The position numbers were made by a program, and so were the translations under genes. From Naegleria gruberi (Eukaryota): a DNA stretch of 64,000 bases. Positions 8,236 through 61,545 of the stretch are shown one piece after another. Location: NCBI GenBank assembly GCA_000004985.1, contig GG738876.1; one strand, given 5' to 3'. The stretch's first letter is position 1. Each line of letters opens with the position of its first letter. Below the pieces are notes generated by a model. It was given only the letters and a program-made list of their open reading frames with translations, did not search any database and was not told the DNA's origin.

Positions 8236-9946
8236 ATGTTTAAAAAAATGAAAAAACAAGTTTCGTCCACTTTCTTACTGGTTATTTATTGTATTTTCGC
8301 TGCTTGTTTCTTGCTCAGTTCTGCTGAAGGATTAGTTCCATCCACACAACCATACTTTTTATGGCCTAATCCACAAACAGGAGAAGCAACAGTTTATTTT
8401 AAAAACGGAGGTTCGAAACCAGTCGAAACTTTGTGGGTTGGTTATGCTGCTTGGAAAGATGCCCCACAAGTTAAAAGCAAAATTTCCAATTTGATTTCAA
8501 GAGGAATTGTTCCATTCATGTAGGTTTTGATTAACTTATTTTATTGGAAATATTATTGGAAAGTCAATCTTATCATTTTGGAGATAATGGACTCAGAGGA
8601 CAATTCGAATTAGCTCTTGCTTTTGATAGAGAAATTGCTAGTGCTATTGGAAACTCTTTTGCCATTGTAAATTTGGAACCAGAATGGGATGTTGATGTTG
8701 TTTTGAATTTATTCAAATCTTCTCAAGGAACTCAATCATTATTGAATAGAATTCAAACATTTAAGAGTCTGGCTCCAAATTCAGTGGTTGTGAGTACTCC
8801 AGGATTGTGGAAATCAGCTCAGGACTATTCATTCTTTAGCTCTGTAGATTCCAAATTGAATGCTCGTGCCATGTTGATGCATGTTGTGAATTCTGGAGAT
8901 GCATCATGTGCTAAGAAACAAGATGGATCATTGTGGCCATATGGTGTAAAATCTTTGAGTGAGGGAATTTCAATGGTCAAGAGTAAGATTGATGAAAATT
9001 TGAACAAGATGACACAAGCTTGGGGTGGTTCTTTACCATTTGAGTGGATTTTGAGTGATGTTGGTGTTACTAGTTGTGGATGGGGAGCTGATGGACAAGC
9101 TGCTATTGTTAATGAATTGATTAAGGTGAGTAATTTTTTATATAACAATGAATATTCGAATTATTGAAATATTGTGGAATTATTTATAATATCAGAATTT
9201 GGATTGTTTATATGCTAGTGGATTCCGTGGATTTAATTTGAGAAATTCAGGTCCATCTGATTTATGGGAAAGAGCTATGGGTATCAACAATGAAGGAATG
9301 TTCACATTCACCACAAGTGCAGCAACCATGAATGTTATTAAAACTGGATTGACCAAGGTTAATGCATTCCTTGTCAATGGCCAAAAACCTTCATGCTCTT
9401 CAAATAATGGTGGATCAAATTCTGGTTCAACTTCCTCATACAAGGTCAATGTCATTAGTGGAAGTAATGATTGGTGGACTCAAATTGAAGTTTTGCCAAC
9501 TTCATCTGTTCAAACAGTTGTCTTGAAATGTGGATCTGCATCAACTTCATTGGAAAGACCAGCTTGGTCCCAAACTCAATTTGTCAAAGGACTTTCCGCA
9601 CAATGCCCAATGGGATCAGATATTCAAGTTATTGTCAACTCAAAATATACCTATCCTATCAAGTATACTGTTGGAGCTAGCTCTGCAAATACTCTCAGCG
9701 ATATGCCACCTCTATTCCAAAATTCTCCAACCAAATANNNNNNNNNNNNNNNNNNNNNNNNNNNNNNNNNNNNNNNNNNNNNNNNNNAGTTTGAAGCAAA
9801 TTAGTGAAAATACTTGGGAAGGTGAAATGCAAAATGGTTTTTGCCCAATTGGTGCCAATGTTCAATTGTTTGTAGTGTTGAGAAATGGACATGTTGAAAG
9901 ATATGATATTATTTATGGTTATGATAATGTTGCCAGATTGTATTAA
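8236..9946 (+). CDS. Secreted multi-exon protein, TIM-barrel-hydrolase-like, with a putative C-terminal carbohydrate-binding beta-domain. Exons are 8236-8519, 8564-9125 and 9196 to beyond 9737, then a gap, then up to 9946.
   Basis: A signal peptide is present (MFKKMKKQVSSTFLLVIYCIFAACFLLSSAEG). Intron 8520-8563 has a GTAGGT donor and a GAAAG acceptor. Intron 9126-9196 has a GTGAGT donor and an ATCAG acceptor. Both restore the frame across the track ORFs. An NLEPEW motif is reminiscent of a clan GH-A acid/base residue. The C-terminal W- and G-rich region (DWWTQIEVLPTSS...VVLKCGS) looks like a binding module. The frame across the 9738-9787 N-gap is arbitrary. Confidence 0.4.
9738..9787. other. 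Assembly gap (50 N)
   Basis: A run of N is present in the sequence. Confidence 0.99.
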
Positions 9947-19077: not shown

Positions 19078-19150
19078 CGCCCCACGTGGGGCTCGAACCC
19101 ACGACCGTTGGATTAAAAGTCCAACGCTCTACCGACTGAGCTAGCGGGGC
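19078..19150 (-). tRNA. tRNA-Lys (anticodon UUU)
   Basis: The reverse complement is GCCCCGCTAGCTCAGTCGGTAGAGCGTTGGACTTTTAATCCAACGGTCGTGGGTTCGAGCCCCACGTGGGGCG. It folds as a cloverleaf with a 7-bp acceptor stem, a GTTCGAG T-loop, and anticodon loop CTTTTAA. Confidence 0.85.
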
Positions 19151-25746: not shown

Positions 25747-25819
25747 TGGAGATGCGGGGTATCGATCCCCGTACCTCTTCCATGCTAAAGAAGCGCTCTA
25801 CCATGTGAGCTACATCCCC
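25747..25819 (-). tRNA. tRNA-Ala (anticodon AGC)
   Basis: The reverse complement is GGGGATGTAGCTCACATGGTAGAGCGCTTCTTTAGCATGGAAGAGGTACGGGGATCGATACCCCGCATCTCCA. The acceptor stem has a G3:U70 wobble pair, which is the alanine identity element. The anticodon loop is CTTAGCA. Confidence 0.85.
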
Positions 25820-53542: not shown

Positions 53543-54415
53543 TCATAAAAAACTATAATCTCTAAATAAACAATTCCCCTTAATTTTGACATCAACTGAC
53601 AGTAATTGTTCCAAATCACTCAAATATTCGAGTCCTTGAATACTAATCTCATTCTCACTTATATCGAGTTTAGTCAATTGTATCAATTTGTTAATGTGTT
53701 TACATCCCTCATCCCCAATATAATTACTGGCAATATTAAGGTTAGTTAATTGAGTCAATTTACCAATGTATTTGGTTCCCAAAGCAGTAATATTATTCTC
53801 AGAAATGTCAAGATATGTTAAATGCTTCAATTGACTGACTTGTTTAGCTCCCTCATCACCAATTTCATTCTGACTAATATCAAGTTTAGTCAATTGATTC
53901 ATCTCACCAATGTATATAGCACCTTCAACACCAATATTGTTGCAACCTATTTTAAGATTTTTCAATTTTTTCATAATTCCACTAATGATCTTTGCTCCTT
54001 CCACTCCAACATTATTATTTCTAATATTGAGATGAGTCAATCGATTCATCTCTTGCAACTTTTTACAATCAAATACCACATCAGAAGGAACATCAACATT
54101 GTATTCCAGCTTGAGACGTGTAATATTAGGTAAGAATTGGCTTCCAACTTGGAATTTTGAATTACTTTTACATGAAAGGGAAAGAGTTGATCGTTCGGAG
54201 GTGATGATTTTCAACCACTGCTTTGAAACCAATGAACAACTCAGCACGAGAAAGGTAAAATCTCGAGGGAGAAAGGATAAGATTTCACCCAGTACATCAT
54301 CAGAGAATATAGAATCAGGATCTTGTGAGAGTTTCTTCCGTTTTGTTTGGTCGTCTTTAATGTTTGAAATATGGTAAGATTGGTGATCATCAAATTCTCT
54401 TACTCTCTTTATCAT
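53543..54415 (-). CDS. F-box and RNI-type LRR protein
   Basis: F-box DVLGEILSFLPRDFTFLVLSCSLVSKQWLKII is present. LRRs are of the form LTKLDISQNEIGDEGAKQVSQLKHLTYLDISENNI. Confidence 0.55.
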   Translation of the reverse strand: MIKRVREFDDHQSYHISNIKDDQTKRKKLSQDPDSIFSDDVLGEILSFLPRDFTFLVLSCSLVSKQWLKIITSERSTLSLSCKSNSKFQVGSQFLPNITRLKLEYNVDVPSDVVFDCKKLQEMNRLTHLNIRNNNVGVEGAKIISGIMKKLKNLKIGCNNIGVEGAIYIGEMNQLTKLDISQNEIGDEGAKQVSQLKHLTYLDISENNITALGTKYIGKLTQLTNLNIASNYIGDEGCKHINKLIQLTKLDISENEISIQGLEYLSDLEQLLSVDVKIKGNCLFRDYSFL

Positions 54416-54592: not shown

Positions 54593-55753
54593 ATGAGCGA
54601 TTTCAAAAGTATCAAGAATAAACTCTCATCCCTGAGAGCCAAGATTAAATCGGAAAGCACTGCTACAACTACCACTAGTACTTCATCAGCCACAACAAAA
54701 ACAACACCATCACCTGTTGCTGCTGCTACAAGTACTGAAAAGAAGATAAAGGCTACTGAACCTGTTGCCACACCATCAACAACAACTCCAGCAACAACCA
54801 AAACTGAACAAGCAACATCAGCTACAACAACAACAACACCAGCAGCTGATAAGAAGAAGAATAACAACAAGAAGGCTAAACAACAAAAGCCAAAGGCTAA
54901 TAAGAAGGCTGCTTCAACAACAACTCCATCCGAGGATAAGAAGGCTACTGAATCTGTCACTACCACACCAACAACAAATTCAGAAGAATCATCATCCACA
55001 ACAACAACAGAAAAGCCAAAGCCTGCTATTAAAAAGTCATCAGCCAAACAAAACAAGGAAAAGAAACAAGGAGTGAAGAGAAAACAAGAAGATGGCTCTG
55101 AAGAATCATCAGAAACAAAGGAAGCAAAGAAGACTGATAAGAAGAAGAATAAGAATAAGAAATCAAAGAAGGCTATCAAGGCTGCAATTAAAACTTTTGT
55201 CTTGAAATTGGAAATTGATAATACCTTAATTAATGAAGAGAAGATTAAGGAATGCTTCCCTGAACAAAATGCAATTATTAGAATGGGACCTAGAATGATT
55301 CTGATTCAATTCCCTACTGAAGAAGTTGCATTGAAATATTTAACATCTGCAAGTGGACAAGTTGAAAAGAATAATAGAACTGTGATTAATGGAGAAAAAT
55401 TCAAGATTACCAAACATACTGTTAAGGAAATTTTCAATCCTCGTTGGTATGATGTTAAACCACGTGTTACTGAAGGTGTTTCACTTGGTTTGGAACCAGG
55501 TCAAAAAGTCAATGGAAAGTTTGGAGCATATTTGGAATTGCATTTGAAGGAAAAACTTGGAAATGATGTCAATACTTCAATTTCTGATATGGAAAAGGGA
55601 GTCACTGTTTTCTTTGATGATAAAACAACAGAACAAAAATTCAAATCAATGCTTCATAATGGTGAATTCAAGGTTCCAGCTGAATATATCAATGATAAAA
55701 AGAAGAAGGGTACTTCTTCTAAAGGACCAGCTAAGAAGAAGTTCAAGAAATAA
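54593..55753 (+). CDS. Highly charged K/T/A-rich protein with a C-terminal globular domain. It may be nucleolar or chromatin-associated.
   Basis: A 386-aa ORF. The antisense ORF at 54526-55179 is an artefact of low complexity. Confidence 0.4.
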   Translation: MSDFKSIKNKLSSLRAKIKSESTATTTTSTSSATTKTTPSPVAAATSTEKKIKATEPVATPSTTTPATTKTEQATSATTTTTPAADKKKNNNKKAKQQKPKANKKAASTTTPSEDKKATESVTTTPTTNSEESSSTTTTEKPKPAIKKSSAKQNKEKKQGVKRKQEDGSEESSETKEAKKTDKKKNKNKKSKKAIKAAIKTFVLKLEIDNTLINEEKIKECFPEQNAIIRMGPRMILIQFPTEEVALKYLTSASGQVEKNNRTVINGEKFKITKHTVKEIFNPRWYDVKPRVTEGVSLGLEPGQKVNGKFGAYLELHLKEKLGNDVNTSISDMEKGVTVFFDDKTTEQKFKSMLHNGEFKVPAEYINDKKKKGTSSKGPAKKKFKK

Positions 55754-55995: not shown

Positions 55996-58900
55996 ATGAG
56001 AATTGTTACTCAAAAGCAAAGAAGATGGGGTAAACAAACTTCCCATCAACTACAGTCATTGTTAAAAACAGCACTCGTGGTGATAACACTGTTAGTATTG
56101 ACCCTTCAAAACTTATTCGAAACTGTACAGGGTGAACAACAAGTTTCCTTCACATTAGATTCTAACAAACTCATCTGTTCGGATTCTTCAAGCTACAACA
56201 GCACAATCTTTTTAAATTCATGCCAAGAAGTGCTTGGTTCAGCCTTCACTAGTAAATTATCCAGCACAACCATTGACAATCCTTCGTCCTATTCTTCCCT
56301 AGTGAGTTGTTACTTTAATTCGGATAAAAAACTTGTGGCAGAGCTTGGCTATGGCTATGAAATTCAAGATATTTTCAAAGGAGAAACTTACTACGATGCC
56401 TTTGGAAGGAAAATAGCGATTATCATCGTTTCACAATTGAAATGTAGTTTTCAAATTTCAAAGCTACAGTACATGTACTTGATTAATGTAGTAGATTGTG
56501 GAAGTAATGTTGCCAAAATTACCTACTCTCTCACTCACGCAAATGCTGATTTACCCAAATATTCAACATTTTCACATCCAATGATGGCTATTCCCTTTTC
56601 AAATAATTATATTAACAATGGTAGACCGGATGTTACTTTTAATCTTGCTACCCAAGCACTCACATATAGTACTTCAAAAGCAAGTGACCAAACCTCAGTT
56701 ACTACTGGTGGTGTTATTGAGTATGGAACTACTACTTTGGTTGGAAATCAAGGATATACACAATTTTTTCTGAATGAAAGCTCAATTGACTCATACACAA
56801 CAACATTTGAACAACCTACTCCTAAAACATTGTATAATTATCTATTAATCAAACAGAATAGAGATGTTGTGGATGTAACAACCTTTGCATCTGGGTATAA
56901 TTACAAATTCTCCTCATCATCAGGTTATTCGAAAACAATATATACTTCATTTTCATACAAGTCAGATTGTTACTACTTGTCAGGAGGTGATAAAACTCAT
57001 CACAAAACACAGGATTTAACAATTAGTATACAGTCAACTGATTTGGAAAGATGTCCATTATATGCTTTACAATACATTTTTGATGGGAATGCTAAAACTA
57101 AAACGAGTAGCACGACATATGCTGCATCTTCACTAACAGATGGTTCAGAAAAGACTGTTACAGTAACTTTGGTTCAACCAACTGGTGGATACGTTGGTGC
57201 GTTCAGAACAACTGTGAGAATTGGAATTTTCCCTGCCATGATGAGACCAGTTTATTTCCCTATTGCACAAACAACTGGACAAAAGCTAACACTTCAATCC
57301 ATTATCGACATTCCTAATCTCACGACCTCTTTAATTTCATGTCAATTGATTGTTGCAACAGGAACTAATGAATATACTTCAAATTCAATTACCTATGATT
57401 ATACTCCAAATTCAATTCAAGTTCAAAATTACAAAACCTATTCGATTATATCGGTTTCAATTACTGTTGGAAATCCTGGAACTTCTTACAAGATTAGAGT
57501 CAATTATAATGGAGATACAAAACATTACAATGATTTCCAAATTTCTCCACAATCAAAACCAAACCTATTGGGTATTTGTAAAGTATCCACAGTTGAATCG
57601 AACCCAATAGCCTACGAGACATTTTTTGGTATTTATTGTGAAAATTATGCAGATTTTGACTTTAGATCAATGAAAATTCAAGTATTGAACGATCAATCAC
57701 AATCAATTTTGACCTTATCCAATACCAAGTACACTCGTATTTTTGCGAGATTACCAAAATCAGCAACAGGTAAATCAAATACTGTCTTGTTTACATTGAC
57801 AGATAGCACAGGAGCTGTATTTGAGTTTAAGGATACCTATAAAGCTTCCATGTGGAGCGACACTAATTTGATTAGTACAGTAGATTTCTACATCAAGTCC
57901 AAGCAAGTGAGAAACTATCAAACAGCCAATAATATTGCAATTTTGTTGGACATTCTTGCAGATTATTGTAAGAGGAATACATTATCTTCTTCTGAGATGG
58001 TTACTGTGAAGGGAATTGTTCGTTATGCCATAAATGAAACATTTAACATTAGAGATACTTTCCATCCTAATGTTTATCCTGAGGCTACTGAATTATTGTT
58101 TGGATTATTTAGAGAATCAACTAATTTGGCGAATTATCTAGGATTTTCAGAGTTTAATGACAAATTGAAGGAAATTCTCTCATTTATGACAAGTTATGTA
58201 AGAAAATCATCCTTTTCCAGCACTGATTATAATTTCTTGATAGATTACATGTCAAGACTTGTGGATAATGGAAATCAAACAACTACTGATCCATCTGCTG
58301 TTTCAACTTTGAAGAAAAACATTGATGGATTGACTAATATCGCCAGCAAGAATTCTCCATTCAAGAGTGATTATTTTTCATATCAATCTCAGACCTTCTA
58401 CTCATCAGATGAAATTGCTTCAAATCAAGTGAATTTGGAAAATAGTTGGGTTAGAGTGTTGTTTGGATCTGAGGTGGCCAATTTGGTAAAATCTCAATCA
58501 CAATACGATTTGGAAACAAGTTTATACAAGAAGTATATTGTGGAAAATAATGTTACACTCCCAGTTATTGCCTCTATCAGTTTGAAGAGACAAGATAGCT
58601 CTGTGGTTAATGTTACTGGATTACAGACACCAGTATTAATATATTTCAACATGGATCTAATTAATTCAACAATGGCAAATCAATATAGAAACTATCAATC
58701 GAGAATTTCATGTTATTACTTGAATGAGTTGACAAGCAAGTGGGCCAATGATGGTCTAACAACAGAGATTATCACTGAAAATGGTCAAACTGTTGTCAAG
58801 TGTTCTTCCACTCACCTTACTTCATTCACAATATTCTCAGACTTGTTCAATACTACAGGTAGTAACACAAATACCCCATCAACAGATAGAAATGGACTAG

Positions 58901-60032
58901 ATGTTGGGGCAAGGGTAGCCATTGGCGTTTCAATTTCAGTATTCTTCCTCATTTTGATAATTGTGATTGTAATTATTATCATTGTAATTATATGTTGTCG
59001 TGTGAAAAAAGGCAAAAATAGTCAGAGCAATGTTTCTGATTCTGTCCAGGAAACCAATCCAATCACCAAGAGTTATGTAGAATTGAATCCAGTCTCCAAC
59101 TCTGATTCTGGTCCATCATTGTTTATTAGTGATTACAAGTCAGTGAGAGAGCCTTCATCCTCGAAACAATACGATACTACCAGTGGAAGTTCATTTACCT
59201 CAGAGCCAACCAGCTCACTCATGACTTCAACAAGTGGAAACTCTGTTATTGGAAAGAAGTATGAAATTTTGGAAAAGATTGGCCAAGGAGCATTCGGGGC
59301 TGTATTTAGAGCTAAAAATCTAGCCTATACTGGAAGATCTGGAGAATATCAATATGTTGCCATTAAAAAGATTCAGCTTTCTGGCCTCTCTGAAATGAAT
59401 GACAAATTCAAAGAGGCGGTCAACATGTTCAAGATTAGAAATGAGCATTTAGTTTGTTTGGAGGATGCTGTGGTGGACGAAACGACCATGTCACTCTACT
59501 TGGTCATGCAATATTATTCTCAAGGAGATTTGGACAAGTTTATCAAAAGCAAGCAACTCTTATCTGAGAGCATTCTGAAACAAATTATTGAACAAGTATG
59601 TGAAGGATTGAAATATTTGGAAGAGGAACGTAACATGCTCCACAGAGATATCAAACCTTCCAATATTTTCCTATCCAGCTATGATGGAAACAATATCAAG
59701 ACAGTGCTCAGTGATTTTGGATTGGCTAAGGAAAATAACATGATGTCAAGTGTTTCATTCGCTGGAACTCCATACTACATGTCTCCACAGGCCTTAATTG
59801 GAACCAAGTATAGCTTTAATGCAGATATCTTTAGTTTGGGATGTACCATTTTCATTCTCATCACTCATGACATGTCTCAATCCATAGCTCAATTATATTT
59901 CCAACATCAGGGCAATTTCTCTGAGGTTTATTCCTTCATTACCAACTCTATCCGTCAACATTCGAATGAACAATTCCAATACAGTGATGAATTCGTTCAG
60001 CTCTTATTTGCATTGATGGAATTTGATCCCAA
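55996..60032 (+). CDS. Single-pass receptor Ser/Thr protein kinase with a large extracellular domain ending in a GPS/GAIN autoproteolysis motif. The 3' end is truncated by an assembly gap.
   Basis: A signal or anchor sequence is present. The extracellular region of about 950 aa is followed by CYYLNELTSKWANDGLTTEIITENGQTVVKCSSTHLTSFTIF, which matches the GPS consensus C..W....G......C.C.HLT.F. The TM is VAIGVSISVFFLILIIVIVIIIIVIICC. The kinase domain has GQGAFGAVFRAK, VAIKKI, HRDIKPSNIFL, DFGLAK and GTPYYMSPQ. Confidence 0.65.
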
Positions 60033-60181
60033 NNNNNNNNNNNNNNNNNNNNNNNNNNNNNNNNNNNNNNNNNNNNNNNNNNNNNNNNNNNNNNNNNNNN
60101 NNNNNNNNNNNNNNNNNNNNNNNNNNNNNNNNNNNNNNNNNNNNNNNNNNNNNNNNNNNNNNNNNNNNNNNNNNNNNNNNN
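60033..60181. other. Assembly gap (149 N)
   Basis: A run of N is present in the sequence. Confidence 0.99.
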
Positions 60182-61545
60182 TAACAATGTTGTGGATTGA
60201 AAAGGTTGGTGCAGTTGGAGGACAACTTGTTGCTGGATTTCAACCCGAATGTATGATTTGCAGAGAAACAATCAACAATGGAGAGGTTTGTATTGGCATG
60301 AGGAAGGTTCATGATTTGGCTATTCACTTTCCCTATCATCCGAGAAGATTTCTCGAAGAAGAGGAAAGGCTTCGTTCCGATGATCATCCATTCAATGAAA
60401 ATTATTTTGATGATTGCAAACAGGACAATGATTATGTACATACTGATTGTTATCCGTACCAATTGGTGAGGCCGTATGCTTGTATGTTTGATGATTCATC
60501 ATCGAATGCTTCTCATGCAGAACAAAAGCAAATTCATAAGTTGATTTCTGATTGGCAATATGGCTATAGAACATTGAATGCCAAGACAAAGAAGAGAAAA
60601 GCAGATAATGGTGATGAAAGTGAGAAGAAAACAAAGACTTCAAAGAGTACTGCAACAAAAAGGAAGAGAAAGACAAAGAAGGAATCAACAGACAGTGCAT
60701 CATCATCAACTAGTACCCCTGGAGGAAGTAGTAGTGGTACTACTGATTACAGTTGGATGAATGCTATTGATTGCACTAATGTGGATTCACCTTACTTGTT
60801 TGGACTCTCAGATGATGCTTGGTATGAAATTCTATCCTATCTACCTCATTATTCAATTGTGAAGGCCTCACAATCATGTAAGGCATTGTACCTTTATTCG
60901 AATAGGAGTATTCTTTGGGAGAATTTGGCAAGCAAAACTATTTGTCCTAATGCAAAACAAGTCCAACAGGAATACTTTCCAACTCTTACTGATGACTTTA
61001 AAAAGGTTTTCAGATTATTGTACAATAATTGTTGTGTAATTTGTGGAGATTATATCAGAAAAGGTGAAGACCTAGATAATAGAAAGAGTTTGTACAGATC
61101 AAAAGGTGGTATTATTGTAGAATCTAATCCATTTTATTATAATTTTATGATTGATCAGTGTCATTGCTCAACATGTTCAGAATCACCACTCATCAATACC
61201 TTTACAAGAACAAATGCCAAGACGCTTTATAGGGTTACAGATACTGAACTAGGGTGTACTAGAAATTTTGCAAAGCCTAACCCTTATTCTCCATCTGTTG
61301 CTATGGGAATATTCCTAGAGTTACAAGTTAAAATATTTCATTTACAGAAAGTGGAAGAAGAATTGAGGAAAAATTTCAAAAAATCAAAAACACATCCAAA
61401 ATCAGATTATTTAAAAATTATTGACAAGGCAAAACGAGGAGATTATGGAAAGGATTGTAAATTATATATTTTCTTAAATGATTCGAATAAGAAGATTTGT
61501 AAAGATAAGGCTATTTATACTTATATTGATGAATTGAGTCCATAA
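60182..61545 (+). CDS. Cys-rich F-box-like protein. It is either the C-terminal part of the kinase gene or, more likely, a separate gene whose 5' end is lost in the gap.
   Basis: An F-box-like motif is present (DAWYEILSYLPHYSIVKASQSCKALYLYSNRSILWENL). Cys/His clusters are present (CMICRETINNGEVC, CCVICGDY, CHCSTCSES). Frame continuity with the kinase across the N run is not informative. Confidence 0.35.

Follow-up and report, generated by a model that had tools for sequence, protein, structure and literature searches.

Can a GAIN domain with its GPS (GPCR proteolysis site; GPCR, G-protein-coupled receptor) motif serve a receptor other than a multi-pass membrane protein? The question is raised by an open reading frame (ORF) on the plus strand of Naegleria gruberi NEG-M, at 55996..60032 of a stretch of 64,000 nucleotides from contig GG738876.1, called the window below. 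To our knowledge, work on GAIN has dealt almost exclusively with its role as the switch of adhesion GPCRs and polycystin-1, in which a tethered agonist for a multi-pass membrane domain is uncovered by cleavage. Receptor kinases often undergo domain shuffling in the lineage of Naegleria, the genus to which the pathogen N. fowleri belongs. An earlier note on this DNA had proposed that the ORF joins a GPS/GAIN module, a single transmembrane (TM) helix and a cytoplasmic Ser/Thr kinase in one protein. Sequence profiles, hhalign, the predicted fold and recurrence in three species all support that proposal, and we regard both the architecture and the homology to GAIN as highly probable. Judged from its sequences, the GAIN-TM-kinase appears to be a real and conserved combination, built from known parts and apparently undescribed. 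In the literature we found no description of a receptor made of GAIN, one TM helix and a kinase, nor of GAIN in Naegleria or Heterolobosea, and a 2023 survey of protist transmembrane kinases makes no mention of GPS, GAIN or Naegleria.

A GPS motif adjoins a single TM helix and a kinase domain

The ORF extends for 1345 codons without a stop codon up to an assembly gap of 149 N, and its first ATG stands 10 codons past an in-frame stop. We annotated it (55996..60032, +) as the partial coding sequence of a type-I GAIN-domain receptor Ser/Thr kinase, on the basis of the continuous ORF and of a full-length alignment with NAEGRDRAFT_59090 (33% identity). The parts of the protein follow one another in the order signal, a lineage-specific module of ~580 aa, a divergent GAIN/GPS, a 31-residue stalk, a TM helix, a Ser/Thr-rich juxtamembrane region and a NEK/ULK-like kinase.

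Translation of 58708-58998 gives SCYYLNELTSKWANDGLTTEIITENGQTVVKCSSTHLTSFTIFSDLFNTTGSNTNTPSTDRNGLDVGARVAIGVSISVFFLILIIVIVIIIIVIICC. The GPS motif covers residues 905-946 (58708..58833, +), as located by Pfam PF01825, the translation and an alignment of 18 sequences (A2), and includes C906, W916, G920, C936, H940, L941, T942 and F944. The end of the ectodomain can be written C906-YYLNELTSK-W916-AND-G920-L...C936-SST-H940-L941-T942-S-F944-TIFS. The string reported in the earlier note is present, with HLT at 58813-58821; its description as 'C-x-W-x-G' was loose, the actual spacing being C906-x9-W916-x3-G920. The cleavage triad, His(-2)-Leu(-1)/Thr(+1), is found together with Phe(+3) in H940-L941-T942-S-F944, and we marked H940-L941 / T942 (58813..58821, +) as a putative autoproteolysis site from the translation, the conservation in 18 homologues and the predicted position in a turn. 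C906, H940, L941 and F944 are invariant in the 18-sequence alignment, C936 and G920 are nearly so, and the +1 residue is always T or S. Over all six frames of the 64-kb window the regular expression C.{20,45}C...HL[ST].F had a single match, and it was absent from all 20,000 shuffled versions of the protein, indicating that the GPS-like string did not arise by chance.

The signature is complete as regards H-L/T-x-F and incomplete in its cysteines, only two of the four canonical ones being present. A canonical GPS has four Cys and two Trp, of which C906 (C1), C936 (C3) and W916 are found here; L921 stands in place of C2, S938 in place of C4 and L909 in place of the first Trp. The GPS disulphides of latrophilin are C801-C832 and C820-C834 (PMC3321182). 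By that pairing, both cysteines lost here belong to one and the same bond, C2-C4 (C820-C834 in latrophilin), while the C1-C3 pair is kept. This two-Cys variant is common to all five Naegleria kinases, and the loss of C2-C4 is a coordinated and coherent departure from the canonical GAIN domain.

The single TM helix lies at residues 974-1001 (58915..58998, +; hydropathy scan and translation). It is the sole internal hydrophobic segment, with a Kyte-Doolittle maximum of 4.08, and ends in CC; the RVKKGK that comes next puts the C-terminus on the cytoplasmic side. With 31 residues between T942 and residue 974, the GPS adjoins the first TM helix, and residues 951-973 of the intervening stalk are rich in Thr and Asn. 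A seven-TM domain past GAIN is absent: there is only the one hydrophobic segment, no Pfam match to 7tm_2 was obtained, and a kinase follows instead. REJ, PLAT, PKD_channel and PKD likewise gave no Pfam match in the protein, in agreement with the earlier statement that the module is attached neither to a 7TM domain nor to a PKD channel.

The Ser/Thr protein kinase domain, recognised in the earlier note by HRDIKPSN and GTPYYMSP, spans residues 1089-1345 (59260..60030, +; subdomains I to about X) and was matched by Pfam Pkinase with E 1.1e-43 and 150 bits. Its motifs are GQGAFGAV (1096-1103), VAIK (1121, with K1124), HRDIKPSN (1216-1223, with N1223), DFG (1240-1242) and GTPYYMSPQ (1257-1265), so that the G-loop, the VAIK lysine, HRD, the catalytic-loop Asn, DFG and the activation segment are all present, and the kinase is predicted to be catalytically competent. 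The APE motif is SPQ (Glu to Gln; residues 1263-1265, 59782-59790) here and in three paralogues, while the N. fowleri member keeps SPE. Since the nearest solved kinases are ULK1/2, NEK2 and CaMK1 (E about 1e-26), the domain is best classed, by sequence, as a generic 'Other/NEK-like' Ser/Thr kinase and not as a TKL-type receptor kinase.

The architecture recurs in three Naegleria species

An exhaustive HMMER search (phmmer) of 1.84 billion representative proteins with the ectodomain yielded 16 matches, all aligned on the GPS region, with GPS-bearing proteins at E 7.6e-10 to 9e-4. A word-indexed homologue search gave no match, either with the ectodomain or with a profile of five long sequences that included the TM helix (A1). 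Three of the 16 matches have the full architecture of ectodomain, GPS, TM helix and kinase. These are N. gruberi NAEGRDRAFT_59090 (XP_002672851, 1389 aa), a paralogue in the same genome that aligned with residues 28 to 1344 at E 3e-33 and the 33% identity given above; N. fowleri CAG4715597/FDP41_013523 (P0122/P0137, 2142-2266 aa), which carries NHL repeats and many teneurin-type EGF repeats before the shared module; and N. lovaniensis C9374_002447 (1329 aa). With the GPS-TM-kinase part as query, a further N. lovaniensis protein, C9374_012141, was retrieved at 46% identity. The order of ectodomain, C...HL(T/S)xF, TM helix and kinase is present in at least four other genes from three Naegleria species and independent assemblies, and because of this recurrence the architecture is no accident of assembly. 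In public databases the kinase-bearing homologues are named only as kinase or hypothetical protein and not as GAIN; C9374_006032, described below, is entered in UniProt as a 'GAIN-B domain-containing protein'.

A leucine-rich-repeat (LRR) gene lies on the minus strand directly upstream of C9374_012141, as it does here, suggesting that C9374_012141 is probably the orthologue; an F-box was detected only in the window's copy of the LRR gene. At the C9374_012141 locus (PYSW02000055) the annotation has two genes and a truncated kinase. The locus contains two 1-nt frameshifts, at L001:9965-9968 and at ~12390, both at A-homopolymers, and in the corrected frame the kinase runs on to ...MLEFDAEKRPNAAQVLAMDFFKNTQ*. 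The frameshifts are probably errors of a long-read assembly rather than marks of a pseudogene.

The other matches of the ectodomain are short proteins that combine a GPS with one TM helix and a short tail; they come from metagenomes and, in the case of C9374_006032, from N. lovaniensis. In Naegleria and in related metagenomic sequences we observed NHL/EGF-GAIN proteins with one TM helix and a short cytoplasmic tail (P0126, which is C9374_006032, and P0123), so that the cassette of GAIN and one TM helix exists both with and without a kinase. Outside Naegleria, a further match, the fragmentary Protostelium nocturnum transcript EP01117_P012933 (P0130), combines a canonical four-Cys GPS (Pfam 40.9 bits) and one TM helix with a kinase of the TKL type. 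This kinase is of the PK_Tyr_Ser-Thr type and is only 24% identical to that of N. gruberi, which suggests that the combination arose more than once and that the Protostelium and Naegleria fusions are probably independent.

Profiles and the predicted fold point to a divergent GAIN domain

The homologues linked by phmmer score 25-41 bits against Pfam GPS, and several of them pass its threshold; one of them, P0131, also matches Pfam GAIN (PF16489) with E 1.4e-14. Besides A1 and A2, we built a profile of the subdomain B region from six Naegleria sequences only, N. lovaniensis C9374_006032 among them (A3), and one of canonical four-Cys GPS sequences (A4). All 18 matches of A2 in the PDB were adhesion GPCRs, among them ADGRL3 (4.7e-12), ADGRG6 (9.5e-12), ADGRG1 (2.6e-11), BAI3 and latrophilin-1, and the alignments covered ~230 columns and extended into the helical region. 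The Naegleria-only profile A3 obtained eight matches in the PDB, every one an adhesion-GPCR GAIN domain, the best being ADGRG1 at E 4.8e-4. Aligned with each other by hhalign, A3 and A4 gave a probability of 98.1% and E 7.9e-14.

In the GAIN domain a six-helix subdomain A precedes a beta-sandwich B, whose last beta-turn contains the scissile bond (Arac et al. 2012; PMC3321182). AlphaFold2, given the 18-sequence alignment, returned a model with a pLDDT of 73.4 overall and of 82-91 over the GPS strands, in which six long helices (residues 641-785) are followed by about 13 strands (residues 796-949), and H940-L941-T942 is placed in the turn joining the last two strands. Foldseek ranked the BAI3 GAIN domain first for this model (E 1e-8) and CD97 next. 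The structure prediction called for in the earlier note therefore returned the layout of six helices and a beta-sandwich, with GAIN domains as the best structural matches. A model from the single sequence reached a pLDDT of 44 and was unusable save for showing six helices.

From these results we delimited a GAIN subdomain A-like helical bundle of six long helices at residues 625-785 (57868..58350, +), seen in the AlphaFold models and reached by the profile alignments to ADGRL3 and ADGRG6, and a GAIN subdomain B-like beta-sandwich, which includes the GPS motif, at residues 796-949 (58381..58842, +). The GAIN-like region thus extends over about residues 625-950 and not over ~700-960 as first supposed.

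The N-terminal module, the juxtamembrane region and the hidden C-terminus

The ectodomain totals ~930 aa. A hydropathy scan identified a signal peptide or signal anchor at residues 1-46 (55996..56133, +), with a basic N-terminus and a hydrophobic core at residues 25-41, and paralogue P0121 has an equivalent N-terminus. Residues 47-624 (56134..57867, +) form a family-specific N-terminal module that is apparently beta-rich and corresponds to no known domain. Pfam gave no match to residues 47-624 even at E<=5, REJ, PKD and Ig domains included, and the module could be aligned with four Naegleria homologues at 18-25% identity. On the cytoplasmic side, the Ser/Thr-rich juxtamembrane region (residues 1002-1088; 58999..59259, +; from the sequence) contains the motif LFISDYKS (residues 1042-1049; nt 59119-59142), which is kept in paralogues as MFISDYKS, LFISEYRS and LFISEYSS and may be a regulatory or phosphorylation site.

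The gap (60033..60181, no strand assigned) contains the end of the kinase gene and its stop codon. Three complete homologues stop 19-22 residues past EFD(A/P), the point at which the gap starts; the C-termini are ...EFDADTRPNAAKVLEMIENSVEITTV in P0121, ...EFDADKRPNAKDILEMSFFKDIQ in P0128 and, in the corrected frame, ...EFDAEKRPNAAQVLAMDFFKNTQ in N. lovaniensis. The gap would therefore hide about 20-25 codons, corresponding to the end of kinase subdomain XI, and no extra domain is expected in it unless the stated gap size is arbitrary. The earlier note was right that the ORF runs into the 149 N, and its view that the C-terminus is unknown is largely superseded by these homologues. Continuation of the ORF over the gap to 61545 was rejected as an artefact of translating Ns, a separate F-box gene being located past the gap.

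Comparison with known receptors

The N. gruberi protein has a homologue of the GAIN module of adhesion GPCRs and polycystin-1, which would probably work in the same way, and it is a member of neither family because it has one TM helix and lacks 7tm_2, REJ and PLAT. Adhesion GPCRs (latrophilin ADGRL1/3, BAI3/ADGRB3, GPR56/ADGRG1 and CD97/ADGRE5) provide the best sequence-profile and structural matches of the N. gruberi GAIN domain. They share with it GAIN subdomains A and B, a GPS with H-L/T-x-F located tens of residues before TM1, and a large, variable, adhesion-type N-terminal region. They differ in having a class-B2 7TM bundle with a tethered-agonist pocket, whereas the N. gruberi protein has one TM helix, and in using G proteins as effectors, whereas the N. 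gruberi protein has a fused Ser/Thr kinase. Compared with them, it keeps only the C1-C3 disulphide and has lost the first Trp. Polycystin-1, PKD1-like and sea-urchin REJ proteins resemble it in carrying GAIN/GPS in a membrane protein that is not a GPCR, behind a long beta-rich ectodomain, but polycystin-1 and the PKD1-like proteins have PLAT and 11-TM/channel-like parts where the N. gruberi protein has a kinase.

The Naegleria relatives (NAEGRDRAFT_59090, C9374_012141, C9374_002447 and FDP41_013523) agree with it in architecture, two-Cys GPS, juxtamembrane motif and kinase type, although they are only 33-46% identical and the N. fowleri protein adds NHL and teneurin-like EGF repeats. Protostelium P0130 has the GPS, the one TM helix and a kinase, but its GPS is the canonical four-Cys form and its kinase is TKL. 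Single-TM isoforms with GAIN are known from Drosophila Cirl (PMC13197933); these and C9374_006032 carry GAIN on a single TM helix as here, but without a catalytic cytoplasmic domain. Protists are also known to have fusions of a GPCR with a kinase, for example Dictyostelium 7TMK1 and the oomycete and choanoflagellate GPCR-TKL/K proteins (PMC12716839, PMC1420674). Like the N. gruberi protein, they are protist surface receptors fused to a kinase; unlike it, they have a 7TM domain, and no GAIN is reported for them in these two papers, whereas the N. gruberi protein has GAIN and no 7TM. Outside animals, GAIN has been described in Dictyostelium and Tetrahymena (PMC3321182), and its origin is placed before that of Holozoa (PMC12716839).

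The genomic neighbourhood

Six of the ORFs nearby encode proteins identical to N. gruberi RefSeq entries (XP_002675736, XP_002675737, XP_002675817 and others). The GAIN-kinase protein itself was not retrieved from either of the two large protein collections, though its neighbours are present as RefSeq proteins, and its gene model may be missing from the annotation or distorted because of the assembly gap. Upstream lie an F-box/LRR protein gene at 53543-54415 (-) and, at 54593-55753 (+), an ORF for a Thr/Lys-rich low-complexity protein of 386 aa that has no Pfam match; long antisense ORFs over 54593-55753 are composition artefacts. The gene past the gap, at 60187-61545 (+), begins with a separate ATG at 60187 but may truly start within the gap; its product contains an F-box and shows a weak XPA_C-like match. 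A search of the rest of the 64-kb window found no paralogue of the GAIN region, and no tandem repeats were found in 53-64 kb. The GC content is ~34% across the whole window. Elsewhere the window contains a second assembly gap, of 50 N at 9738-9787, and two tRNA genes on the minus strand, tRNA-Lys(TTT) and tRNA-Ala(AGC), at 19078-19150 and 25747-25819.

A proposed mechanism and its alternatives

Taken as a whole, the data are best explained, in our estimate somewhat better than evenly, by a single-pass GAIN receptor kinase that operates through cleavage. According to this proposal, the GAIN domain would cleave itself between L941 and T942 during biosynthesis, and the N-terminal fragment of ~900 aa would be kept non-covalently, with the last strand, T942-SFTIFS, still embedded in the sandwich. 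A ligand, adhesion or a pulling force acting on the large N-terminal fragment would then alter or release the complex. Because there is no 7TM pocket to receive a tethered agonist, the signal would have to reach the kinase through the single TM helices, by a change in their oligomeric state or orientation that leads to trans-autophosphorylation. The motif and its conservation make self-cleavage at L941/T942 slightly favoured; regulation of the kinase by release of the N-terminal fragment is a tentative idea that we think less likely than not, and mechanosensitivity we only infer.

Several observations weigh against this proposal. Of the two Pfam profiles suggested in the earlier note, GPS (PF01825) matched residues 905-946 with E 2.3e-4 and 22.0 bits, 0.5 bit under the gathering score of 22.5, and GAIN (PF16489), which represents subdomain A of animal receptors, gave no match to this protein at E<=1. 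Profile A1 reached only E 0.05-0.19 with adhesion GPCRs, and significance was attained after A1 had been trimmed to subdomain B and C9374_006032 had been added, which resulted in A3. The AlphaFold model has a pTM of 0.49, it compares with GAIN structures at global TM-scores of only 0.30-0.33, and its helical half also matches unrelated helical-repeat proteins. Nor is the model independent evidence, the alignment containing canonical GPS sequences and the training of AlphaFold having included GAIN structures. In latrophilin two disulphides secure the scissile turn, and one of them is missing here. BAI3 and other animal GAIN domains have a consensus H-L-S/T site and are uncleaved (PMC3321182), so that the motif alone is no proof of cleavage. 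All that would happen downstream of cleavage is speculative and has no precedent.

The main rival, which we think unlikely though it deserves attention, holds that the GAIN domain is real and stays uncleaved, serving as a rigid membrane-proximal stalk or scaffold in an ordinary receptor kinase that is dimerised by its ligand. It accords with the missing C2-C4 disulphide and first Trp, with the sub-threshold Pfam GPS score and with the existence of uncleaved animal GAIN domains such as that of BAI3 (PMC3321182). It has to contend with the strict retention of H-L-(T/S)-x-F in 18 of 18 homologues whose surroundings are only about 20-30% identical, a pattern that is hard to explain by a purely structural role. 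That the cytoplasmic domain is a pseudokinase or scaffold, and the protein an adhesion molecule and not a signalling kinase, is quite improbable: the SPQ in place of APE, found here and in three paralogues, and the concealment of subdomain XI by the gap would fit such a role, but the G-loop, the VAIK lysine, HRD, the catalytic-loop Asn and DFG are all in place and Pkinase scores 150 bits.

Two further explanations carry even less weight. If the GPS-like string had arisen by chance or convergence in an unrelated ectodomain without GAIN, one could understand the Pfam GPS score under the gathering threshold, the missing PF16489 match and the search of the PDB with the single sequence by phmmer, which gave noise only (phage gp15, E 0.14); this explanation is already strongly disfavoured. 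It would be just as surprising if the ORF were an artefactual or read-through fusion of an adhesion-protein gene and a kinase gene that are expressed separately. The gene does abut an assembly gap and the protein itself was not found in protein collections, but 4 kb are free of stop codons at 34% GC, the TM helix and the juxtamembrane segment connect both halves in frame, and independent assemblies of three species contain at least four other genes with the identical architecture.

Implications for GAIN and for Naegleria

The single-pass GAIN receptor kinase extends the range of GAIN to Discoba, which bears on the age of the domain, and the conserved family indicates that in evolution GAIN has served as a juxtamembrane cassette that is portable between proteins. 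A bolder proposal, about which we are doubtful, is that GAIN-kinase receptors are a distinct and ancient autoproteolytic class gated by adhesion or force, in which a single-pass kinase is controlled without a 7TM domain, and which comprises a small family in Heterolobosea (Discoba) and a similar, probably independent, fusion in Amoebozoa. If this is true, GAIN would have a signalling role independent of the mechanism of tethered agonist and 7TM domain, a role that may predate that mechanism, and a third eukaryotic supergroup would be added to Amoebozoa and ciliates as a non-animal home of GAIN. For the adhesion-GPCR field the protein is mechanistically provocative, and it offers a simple system for the effect of GAIN cleavage or dissociation without a 7TM pocket. 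For Naegleria itself, the finding adds a type of receptor kinase to the genus, of which N. fowleri has a homologue with a teneurin-like NHL/EGF ectodomain.

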